This document shows positions 6,340 to 8,665 of a stretch of 64,000 bases of DNA, piece after piece (within the stretch, counting starts at the first letter, position 1; every line of letters begins with the position of its first letter). A model generated the notes under the pieces. The model was not told the origin of the DNA and ran no database searches. It was given only the letters and a program-made list of their open reading frames with translations. The position numbers and the translations under genes were made by a program. Source of the stretch: Clostridium sp. (GTDB lineage: Bacteria > Bacillota > Clostridia > Clostridiales > Caloramatoraceae); NCBI RefSeq assembly GCF_036639235.1, contig NZ_JAVWJB010000007.1, positions 9,352-73,351 of the forward strand, read 5' to 3'.

Positions 6340-6954
6340 TTAATTCATGGTTCTAAAAAGTCCAATTGCCTTACCTAAAATAGCACAGTCTTTAACTATA
6401 ATGTTATCCATAGCTGAGTTCTCAGGCTTTAATACAATATGATCCTTTTCTTTGTAGAAGCGCTTAACTGTTGCACTATCTTCAATTAAAGCAACAACAA
6501 TTTCTCCGTTATTAGCAGTAGAAGTGGACTCAACAATTAAAAGGTCCCCATCATTAATACCAGCTTCTATCATACTAGAGCCTTTAACTTGAAGCATGAA
6601 GGTTTGCTTATTGCTCTTAATATACTCCATAGGTAATGGGAATGTATCTACTATATTCTCAACAGCAAGAATAGGTTCACCAGCAGCAACTTCGCCAACT
6701 ATAGGAACATGTACCATTTCTTTACGAAGCCTTGCATCTTCAACAATTTCAAGTGCACGAGTCTTTACAGGGTCTTTACGAACAACACCCTTTTTCTCAA
6801 GGGAATGTATAACTCCATGAGCAGAAGATGTACTCTTAAATCCGCAGGCAGCACAGATCTCTCTAACTGAAGGTGGGTAACCCCTATCCTGTATTGAATC
6901 TCTTATATAATCTAGAACTATTTGTTCCTTTTCGCTTAGACCTACATTAGACAT
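6340..6954 (-). CDS. lexA: SOS repressor LexA
   Basis: GYPPSVREI HTH; VGEVAAGEP Ala-Gly cleavage site; VKGSSMI catalytic Ser; ATVKR catalytic Lys. Confidence 0.98.
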   Translation of the reverse strand: MSNVGLSEKEQIVLDYIRDSIQDRGYPPSVREICAACGFKSTSSAHGVIHSLEKKGVVRKDPVKTRALEIVEDARLRKEMVHVPIVGEVAAGEPILAVENIVDTFPLPMEYIKSNKQTFMLQVKGSSMIEAGINDGDLLIVESTSTANNGEIVVALIEDSATVKRFYKEKDHIVLKPENSAMDNIIVKDCAILGKAIGLFRTMN

Positions 6955-7005: not shown

Positions 7006-7046
7006 ATTATATCATAGATATAATTCTAAATCAAAACTTACGTTCT
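7006..7046 (-). promoter_or_regulatory. lexA SigA promoter with SOS box abutting the -35
   Basis: Minus strand TTGATT (7029-7034)-17 bp-TGaTATAAT (7006-7011); GAAC-GTAA-GTTT at 7034-7045. Confidence 0.75.
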
Positions 7047-7080: not shown

Positions 7081-7099
7081 TTTACACACACATTTTCAA
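7081..7099 (+). repeat. 19-bp direct repeat, copy 1 (copy 2 at 8481-8499)
   Basis: tttacacacacattttcaa occurs twice, 1400 bp apart. Confidence 0.7.
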
Positions 7100-7193: not shown

Positions 7194-7221
7194 TATTTAC
7201 ATAATAAATATTATGTAAATT
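7194..7221. other. dif-like Xer recombination site 1
   Basis: TATTTACATAA TAAATA TTATGTAAATT: 11-6-11 layout, perfect 10-bp inverted arms, right arm 10/11 to the B. subtilis dif arm TTATGTAAACT. Confidence 0.7.
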
Positions 7222-7256
7222 AATAAAATAAATATTATTTGGAAAAATAAAACTAG

Positions 7257-7285
7257 TAGACAATATACTTAACCTTTATTAAAAT
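7257..7285 (+). promoter_or_regulatory. SigA-type promoter of the small acidic ORF
   Basis: TAGACA-17 bp-TAAAAT, 33 bp before the ATG at 7319. Confidence 0.6.
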
Positions 7286-7318
7286 AGATGTATTGATTAT
7301 TTAAGGGGAGTGTGTACT

Positions 7319-7618
7319 ATGGAATTTAATAATGAGTTAGATATTTGCGACTTAGATCCATCTAAAATCTGTGATAGCTGCGAAAAATGTCTTGGAATAG
7401 ACACTAAAGACTATAGAGAAATTAGAATTGATGGGGTTGTAGATGAAGATACAGCAAGCCTTAACGAGTTTGATGAGTATAATATTTTTAACCTTGAAGA
7501 AGTGGAAGAAGAAGATACTGATGCAACAAATGAATATGAATTTATAGAGGATATTGAGGAAATTCGCGATATACTTTACGAGGAAAATGAAGAAAATTCA
7601 AATAACCAGGATGCTTAA
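7319..7618 (+). CDS. Small acidic Cys-motif protein (99 aa), function unknown
   Basis: RBS aaggggag 8 nt before ATG 7319 (track starts at GTG 7310); C-x7-C-x2-C-x2-C motif; 36 Asp/Glu versus 6 Lys/Arg. Confidence 0.8.
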   Translation: MEFNNELDICDLDPSKICDSCEKCLGIDTKDYREIRIDGVVDEDTASLNEFDEYNIFNLEEVEEEDTDATNEYEFIEDIEEIRDILYEENEENSNNQDA

Positions 7619-7640
7619 TTTGGCATACCTGGTTATTTTT
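7600..7640. terminator. Bidirectional terminator between small ORF and xer gene
   Basis: aaataaccagg-atgc...gcat-acctggttattt stem with flanking A/T runs. Confidence 0.7.
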
Positions 7641-7649
7641 ATGCTATGT

Positions 7650-7677
7650 AGTTTACATAATATATATTAAGTAAACT
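7650..7677. other. dif chromosome dimer resolution site (site 2), near-perfect palindrome
   Basis: Minus strand AGTTTACTTAA TATATA TTATGTAAACT; last 19 nt identical to B. subtilis dif (ACTTCCTAGAA TATATA TTATGTAAACT); located at the gene-orientation switch. Confidence 0.9.
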
Positions 7678-8665
7678 ACTTTTTTTCTATATTTATATTA
7701 AGATTAGCTAGTGGATTAGATTTAACTGCTGTACGTAATTGATCATCGTCAATATGGGTATATATTTGGGTTGTAGCAACACTTTCGTGACCAAGTATCT
7801 GTTGAAGCGCCCGTATATCAACCCCTCCATGTTTATACATAAGAGTTGCAGCAGTATGGCGAAGCTTATGTGGCGTATATTTATTTGAATCAAGTCCTGC
7901 GTACTCAGCATATTTTTTAACTAATAGTTCCACTGTTCTTTTGTTAATTCTCTTTCTTTGCTCACTTAAAAAAAGAGCATCCTCAAAGCCTGGAAGTGGC
8001 TTTAAACGTATAGATAGATATGCTGAAATCGAGTTTAGACATATAGGGGATAGGTATACTGTACGTTCCTTATTACCCTTTCCAATTACCGTAAGTATAT
8101 CACCTTTTATGCTGCTAATATTAATACCTACAAGCTCTGAAAGTCTTAAACCGCAGTTTAGAAATAGGGCTAAAATGCAAAAGTCACGTTCCTTATTTCT
8201 ACCTACAACAGTACCAAAAACAGATTCAAGTAGGTCCTTACTTTCATCTAAAGTAAGATAAATTGGATGTCTTTTCACACTTTTGGGAGACTCTAAATCC
8301 TTAGCAGGATTGTCTACTATAAGCCTTCTTTTGTTTTCTAAATAATTAAAGAACCCCCTAATAGAAGCTGTTTTTCTAGCTCTTGCAGCAGCAGAATTAT
8401 GACGGGTATTATTAACATACCCTATAAAGGAGTATATGTCTGATAATGTAATGCTTTTTATAAAGTTATCATCAACATTTTTTACACACACATTTTCAAG
8501 TGGAGTTTCTAGAGAATTTCTAAATTTATATACATACTTAATAAAAAGTCTTAAATCGGTTTTATAACCTTCAACAGTATTTGGAGACTTACCTTTAATA
8601 GTAGACAAATATCCTAAATACTCATTAAGTATATATGGAATTTCATTTGGATCATTGTTTTCCAT
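7676..8665 (-). CDS. xerC: Xer-family tyrosine recombinase
   Basis: Full catalytic set: GLRLSEL (R), GKGNKER (K), HKLRH (H-x-x-R), LGHES (H), TQIYTH (Y). Confidence 0.92.
   Translation of the reverse strand: MENNDPNEIPYILNEYLGYLSTIKGKSPNTVEGYKTDLRLFIKYVYKFRNSLETPLENVCVKNVDDNFIKSITLSDIYSFIGYVNNTRHNSAAARARKTASIRGFFNYLENKRRLIVDNPAKDLESPKSVKRHPIYLTLDESKDLLESVFGTVVGRNKERDFCILALFLNCGLRLSELVGINISSIKGDILTVIGKGNKERTVYLSPICLNSISAYLSIRLKPLPGFEDALFLSEQRKRINKRTVELLVKKYAEYAGLDSNKYTPHKLRHTAATLMYKHGGVDIRALQQILGHESVATTQIYTHIDDDQLRTAVKSNPLANLNINIEKK
8481..8499 (+). repeat. 19-bp direct repeat, copy 2 (inside xer CDS)
   Basis: Identical to 7081-7099. Confidence 0.7.

Follow-up and report, generated by a model that had tools for sequence, protein, structure and literature searches.

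The dif site of the Firmicutes XerC/XerD (CodV/RipX-type) system is a unique 28-bp sequence at the skew switch of the chromosome, with the canonical XerD arm TTATGTAAACT. The terminus of B. subtilis and S. aureus also contains XDS (XerD-specific binding sites), dif-like sites reported by Karaboja et al. 2021 (Mol Cell 81:756). According to papers that cite this study, XerD binds these extra terminus loci independently of XerC and, when bound there, unloads SMC (PMC9226527, PMC11840125, PMC10945525). Recombinase genes located beside their own sites are found in the XerS/difSL and XerH/difH systems (PMC1914069), while paired Xer sites around a short gene-bearing segment are known from Acinetobacter plasmid pdif modules and from IMEX (CTX-phi, TLC-phi and the gonococcal genetic island, GGI). 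In the GGI attP, the second site departs from dif in outer XerD-arm positions, and with such deviations FtsK is reported to remove Xer rather than activate it (PMC9226527).

The window analysed here, a 64,000-nt stretch of a Clostridium sp. genome, harbors two dif-like sites, both read directly from the sequence and present exactly as the original prediction had written them: an accessory site, site 1 (7194-7221; TATTTACATAA TAAATA TTATGTAAATT), and site 2 (7650-7677; AGTTTACATAA TATATA TTAAGTAAACT). They are 456 bp apart, start to start, and their 6-bp spacers differ by one base, that of site 2 (TATATA) being palindromic. A 24-nt consensus with up to three mismatches matched only these two sites in the window (four strand-hits; 0.04 expected from shuffles), and the 2.18-Mb genome (109 contigs) contains no other close matches. 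Scoring of the arms alone with a weight matrix over the whole genome yielded 27.3 for site 2 and 21.8 for site 1, the next best score being 17.3. Direct sequence comparison found the likeness between the two sites to be confined to the 28 bp, with none in the flanks. The sign of the GC skew switches between 6 and 8 kb of the window and cumulative G-C peaks at 7776, ~100 bp from site 2; the region is therefore the replication terminus, as had been predicted.

Site 2 is the dif of the chromosome. Its 28 bp divide into two arms around a 6-bp centre; it has the highest arms-only score of any dif-like site in the genome, coincides with the skew switch and is conserved. The TAG stop codon of the adjacent xer gene shares 2 nt with it. 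The xer-distal arm, AGTTTACATAA, is the reverse complement of the canonical arm TTATGTAAACT, the xer-proximal arm is TTAAGTAAACT, and the spacer equals the centre of the B. subtilis dif as that sequence is cited in PMC3025954. Dif-like sites right behind the xer stop codon recur in six genera (g1, g3, g5, g6, g7 and g8), always with TTATGTAAAC or TTATGTTAAC as the xer-distal arm, which identifies site 2 as the chromosomal dif and its distal arm as the XerD arm. More distant Clostridia Xer proteins (43-59% identity) are mostly encoded without a dif beside the gene and without synteny. Across same-species assemblies, site 2 does not vary. Its XerD-type arm and spacer are also unchanged in two sister species, whose dif sequences read AGTTTACATAA TATATA TTACGTAAACC and AGTTTACATAA TATATA TTAAGTAAACT; the XerC-side arm of the true dif thus differs between them. 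Unlike the usual Firmicutes dif, site 2 adjoins the recombinase gene and is almost perfectly palindromic: with its flanks included (7648-7679), 32 bp are palindromic but for one pair (7657 A / 7670 A). With the spacer palindromic as well, almost nothing in this dif fixes a direction. The xer-side dif arms of relatives are more asymmetric than in this species.

The xer gene (7676-8665, minus strand) encodes a XerC-like tyrosine recombinase of 329 aa with the Pfam domains Phage_integrase and SAM-like N; its NCBIfam scores were 216 bits for XerC and 201 bits for XerD, each under the cut-off. Orthologues with 54-75% identity, adjoining the small ORF and lexA described below, occur across the family and order. 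The adjacency of dif and recombinase gene is shared with XerS/difSL and XerH/difH, but a separate, canonical XerD exists in this genome, encoded beside spoIIM (G000:C8; L158:2268-3173, minus strand) and scoring 365 bits for TIGR02225 against a cut-off of 329.6. This XerD runs counter to a single-recombinase reading of the present dif; rather, site 2 would be used by the adjacent XerC-like recombinase together with the XerD encoded elsewhere. Genes for SMC and for a single gamma-domain FtsK are likewise present. Examination of the xerD promoter for an array of XerD half-sites revealed none.

Between the two sites lies a small ORF (7319-7618, plus strand) for a highly acidic protein with four cysteines, 99 aa long as predicted when read from the ATG at 7319 (102 aa from an alternative GTG at 7310). 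The protein has no Pfam or NCBIfam match, and its nearest homologues (76-78% identity) are annotated as hypothetical. The proposed SigA promoter (7257-7285, plus strand; TAGACA-17-TAAAAT) is the region's best consensus match (10/12) and is kept in the sister species; its -35 hexamer and the block CTTTATTAAAATA are invariant over three species. Between the end of site 1 and the -35 hexamer downstream of it lie 35 bp in this species and 26 bp in both sister species. Likewise in keeping with the original prediction, the convergent small ORF and xer are separated by a hairpin (7600-7638) with a U-rich tail on each side, likely a bidirectional terminator (-21 kcal/mol and z -4.5 on the plus strand, -19.4 kcal/mol and z -5.0 on the minus strand); it is identical in one sister species and was not flagged by a simple terminator scan. 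On the far side of site 1, lexA (6340-6954, minus strand; Pfam LexA_DNA_bind and Peptidase_S24) has a promoter TTGATT-17-TATAAT with TG. A LexA box, GAACGTAAGTTT (7034-7045), abuts this promoter next to the -35 element and is kept in relatives; promoter and box together span 7006-7045 (minus strand). An exact 18-nt direct repeat, TTACACACACATTTTCAA (0.01 expected by chance), occurs at 7082-7099 in the lexA/small-ORF intergenic region and at 8482-8499 inside xer. One sister species retains its core ACACATTTT(C/A)AA at both places, and another member species of the genus has a pair resembling it; coding constraint may account for retention of the xer-internal copy.

Homologues of the small ORF are convergent with xer in nearly all loci of the family and in several order-level loci (f3), and the arrangement xer / convergent small ORF / lexA recurs family-wide and in related families, mostly at loci without a second site. 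Because it is present in relatives that mostly lack a second dif-like site, the small ORF is, to judge from this distribution, an ancestral resident of the xer-lexA interval and not cargo. In genus g6 the gene ahead of it, transcribed divergently from lexA and equipped with LexA boxes, encodes a YneA-like LysM protein. In other genera, at L140:11215-11484 (minus strand) and at homologous places in L012, L017 and L020, a gene with LexA boxes for an 89-aa membrane-anchored LysM protein resembling the SOS division inhibitor YneA is located between lexA and the small ORF. The window's genus has no such gene, and the small ORF there has its own promoter and no LexA box. The LysM gene with its LexA boxes between small ORF and lexA in other genera therefore suggests that the small ORF is ancestrally the distal gene of an SOS operon divergent from lexA.

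Site 1 has a narrower distribution than its neighbour. Two sister species, reached via their small-ORF homologues (76-78% identity), carry a site at the same place (TATTTACATAA AAAATA TTATGTAAATA in species 2 and AAGTAACATAA ATAATA TTATGTAAATA in species 3), and none was found in the other two species of the genus. Conservation of both sites around orthologous xer genes, as raised by the original prediction, is thus borne out for site 2 in six genera and for site 1 in two sister species, but not for site 1 in the rest of the genus. The arm facing the small ORF, TTATGTAAATT (7211-7221), is of XerD type and equals the dif XerD arm TTATGTAAACT at 10/11 positions. Its position 10 is T, compared with C in every main dif of the family, and its outer end reads AAAT in place of AAAC. 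Within this arm, TTATGTAAAT is invariant over the three species. Of the lexA-side arm, TATTTACATAA, mainly the inner ACATAA is kept, and about CATAA over the three species; in species 2, the left arm of L240 and L242 reads TATTTATATAA, with TATAA replacing CATAA. The weight matrix made no call on orientation from the arms alone (21.8 vs 21.6); the orientation was resolved because one arm is the one conserved in the sister species, the sole deciding evidence.

In a four-sequence alignment of the intergenic region, covering three species and with 53.7% of columns invariant overall, invariant positions amounted to 10/11 in the right arm of site 1, 4/6 in the spacer and 7/11 in the left arm, compared with 14/44 and 16/35 (32-46%) in the flanks. 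The stretch AATATTATGTAAAT (7207-7220) is the second-longest invariant intergenic block, shorter only than a 15-nt block at the ribosome-binding-site end of lexA; third is a 13-nt block at the -10 element of the small ORF. Spacers of site 1 (TAAATA, AAAATA and ATAATA) are one, two and three bases off the constant dif spacer TATATA in the three species and never equal to it. Among strains, the single variant in site 1 is 7205 T>C, yielding the spacer CAAATA; the arms are constant, while the flanks are rich in SNPs. Conserved arms around a drifting spacer therefore indicate that selection maintains one XerD-type arm in full and its partner in the inner part. Such a free spacer, never matching that of dif, reads as the signature of a protein-binding site and not of a recombination partner of dif.

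We therefore lean, with slight preference, towards site 1 being an accessory XerD/Xer-binding site of the XDS type that does not recombine with dif. According to the descriptions in citing papers, the features expected of an XDS are a XerD-type arm, a degenerate 5-6 bp centre, an inner CATAA opposite and a terminus locus other than dif. Site 1 has such an arm (10/11, with TTATGTAAAT invariant), a centre that reads TAAATA, CAAATA, AAAATA or ATAATA, and the inner CATAA in species 1, 2 and 3 (TATAA in L240 and L242), and lies 456 bp off dif. The genome further encodes XerD and an SMC of the SMC-ScpAB type, and the assemblies hold no sign of recombination. Unlike the XDS of B. subtilis and S. aureus, site 1 is only 456 bp from dif and within the lexA/small-ORF control region, has a second arm that is almost a full palindromic copy, carries T instead of C at position 10, and belongs to an uncultured Clostridium-like bacterium. 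At this site XerD would dock next to dif without recombination between the two, because the centres differ and the outer XerD arm reads AAAT, not AAAC. The reported behaviour of the GGI attP would agree with a site 1 that FtsK does not drive into recombination. Since the second arm is a nearly complete copy in this species, a pair of XerD monomers could occupy the site. Judging from B. subtilis, the most likely job of site 1 would be to unload or stop SMC-ScpAB at the terminus, and the small ORF, its promoter and the terminator may merely happen to occupy the nearest non-coding neighbourhood of dif. XerD binding, the absence of recombination and the SMC link are what we infer for this site. 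The fallback offered by the original prediction, a Xer-bound site 1, comes close to what the conservation pattern supports, although its operator version is only a rival (see below).

Several observations sit less easily with an XDS-type site. XDS have been demonstrated experimentally only in B. subtilis and S. aureus, the T at XerD-arm position 10 departs from every main dif of the family, and the two nearly complete arms in this species may allow binding by a XerC-like protein and recombination. Site 1 is not essential, as it is missing from the other two species of the genus. SMC unloading hardly seems to call for a site as close to dif as 456 bp, and a regulatory role would be just as good a fit for a place immediately ahead of a promoter. 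If correct, the XDS-type interpretation would extend XerD-type accessory sites from Bacillus and Staphylococcus to uncultured Clostridia. It would also provide a very compact natural test case, in which 1.5 kb hold dif, the recombinase gene and an XDS-like site, and for which there are sister species with a different spacer and outer arm.

The original prediction had favored an active mini-module between sites 1 and 2, excised or inverted by Xer and linking xer to lexA. Indeed, two full dif-like sites with only one spacer base different in this species lie 456 bp apart beside xer, their XerD-type arms face each other in the inverted arrangement of pdif modules, and in the unrelated lineage L036 direct repeats with identical spacers surround a homologous ORF. 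The predicted geometry of a deletion is also correct, if hypothetical: the shared terminator would be lost and xer put upstream of lexA. As the conserved arms of the two sites face each other, any recombination between them would be an inversion, and this would be without effect on expression because promoter, ORF and terminator are all inside the segment; a fim/hin-type invertible switch is thereby not what this segment resembles. Nor does the segment resemble pdif modules or IMEX in content, being chromosomal and without foreign genes: rather than being mobile, the bracketed gene is vertically inherited at the same place, also in relatives without the second site. The centres are incompatible, with spacers two or three bases apart in the sister species, and even the single spacer heterology of this species would presumably block this Xer. 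Same-species contigs (seven MAGs and four Logan contigs, 99.4-100% identity) were retrieved by exact-protein look-up, in which some similar places were merged; scans of metagenomes and genome collections with Xer yielded no same-species DNA. All 11 same-species contigs spanning both sites were colinear with the window, as were 3/3 contigs of sister species, and no deleted, empty or inverted allele was seen among these 14 consensus assemblies, in which rare events are invisible. In SRR25820371, two Logan contigs share exactly 30 nt (7640-7669), that is, the assembly graph branches at 7670. A circle, a fold-back or an inversion junction was considered for this branch and discarded, since the breaks expected at 7651/7652, 7202/7208 and 7219 do not match. 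One sister species is identical over 7602-7669 and then has C at 7670, so its co-assembly would best account for the branch at 7669/7670. Other Logan contig ends coincide with strain SNPs (7096, 7189 and 7225) or fall at no known SNP (7144 and 7118). With an ancestral ORF, colinear assemblies and a drifting spacer all speaking against it, we regard the mini-module as very unlikely. For annotation, paired dif-like sites around a terminus gene are in themselves not evidence of a mobile or switchable cassette.

Three further readings concern site 1 itself, of which a backup dif and an operator, like the XDS-type site, involve Xer binding, so that these do not exclude each other. As a backup or second dif, site 1 would recombine with site 1 of the sister chromosome, whose spacer is always identical, and thereby resolve dimers, while the spacer mismatch with site 2 would prevent intramolecular deletion or inversion. 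Its location at the terminus, the full 28-bp length with both arms, and the closeness of TATTTACATAA to AATTTACATAA, the XerC-side arm of the main dif in the family member G003 (within one base), accord with this, and a variable arm is compatible with recombination, given that the XerC-side arm of the true dif varies among the sisters too. We nevertheless consider a backup dif unlikely: the spacer drifts between close species while that of dif is invariant, position 10 of the XerD arm is unlike that of all main dif sites in the family, outer XerD-arm deviations reportedly let FtsK strip Xer (as for the GGI attP, PMC9226527), and one dif is enough in the other two species of the genus. Site 1 also occupies the divergent control region of lexA and the small ORF, just upstream of the -35 element, and L036, an unrelated lineage, has independently placed a dif-like site in the same intergenic region. 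In this genus, moreover, the ORF has lost the LexA-controlled LysM gene found upstream of it in other genera. XerD or the XerC-like protein bound there might tune lexA or the small-ORF promoter 26-35 bp downstream and so couple terminus status to an SOS-related gene. This operator is quite unlikely in our view, as the distance to the -35 element varies (35 vs 26 bp), the L036 site differs in orientation and in position relative to the promoter, and the secondary sites of other relatives are in unrelated places. To our knowledge, no Xer protein is established as a transcription factor.

An equally slim chance attaches to the head-to-head dif and palindromic XerD site, 456 bp apart, forming a functional unit in which terminus or dimer status feeds into an SOS-linked gene. 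XerD at site 1 might synapse with Xer at dif and trap the acidic four-cysteine gene in a loop, or XerD might act as a transcription factor on the small-ORF/lexA control region; in a rarer variant, Xer might invert or excise the 456-bp segment at low frequency. That L036 has independently placed a dif copy in this intergenic region too hints at more than coincidence. Lower still do we rate a relic with no present function, left either by duplication of dif and subsequent decay or by an earlier Xer-dependent integration and loss. Confinement to a clade of three species would suit a relic, and L036 demonstrates that duplications of ~55 bp of the dif region arise. Yet in an intergenic region that evolves fast, only one block is better conserved over three species than the right arm, strains share the same arms despite many SNPs in the flanks, and the similarity of sites 1 and 2 stops at the 28 bp.

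A survey of 20-kb stretches around xer in 20 genomes revealed two or three dif-like sites in 9/20 relatives, at positions not conserved between genera, whereas a shuffled control gave 0 matches in 382 kb. Matches to the core motif concentrate on xer contigs, and within most pairs the spacers are unequal. Extra dif-like sites at the terminus therefore appear to be common in this group and flexible in position. Pair spacings reached 19.4 kb in three species of genus g4 and were 3.7, 15.7 and 16.5 kb in other genomes. A general palindrome scan downstream of xer was set aside, as it mostly found terminators. Within the window, a weak third dif-like site (1654-1681; TGAAATCATAA CTAATA TTAAGTAAACT) lies just upstream of gshAB. 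Its right arm repeats the xer-proximal arm of dif exactly, but the site is not kept in the sister species, where that arm reads TTCAATTAACT, and is probably due to chance.

The g4 pair (L149, L151 and L152, from G005, G012 and G016) consists of two dif-like sites in direct orientation that bracket xer, lexA and housekeeping genes, neither of them adjoining xer. In L036, a metagenome contig (UOOE01008705.1, ~4x coverage), direct repeats of ~55 bp at +18..+80 and +540..+600 from the xer stop codon flank the small-ORF homologue. Each repeat contains a dif-like site with the spacer TATTTA, so the pair could, by sequence, recombine; a third, inverted dif-like site lies 190 bp upstream of xer. In two order-level genomes (L025 and L027, from G020 and G027), the interval from xer to the small ORF contains an inserted lipoprotein gene, in the same orientation in both, with two inverted dif-like sites around it (+81..+770 from the xer stop codon). 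The two sites have identical spacers in G027, and this lipoprotein segment is a candidate for inversion by Xer or for an insertion.
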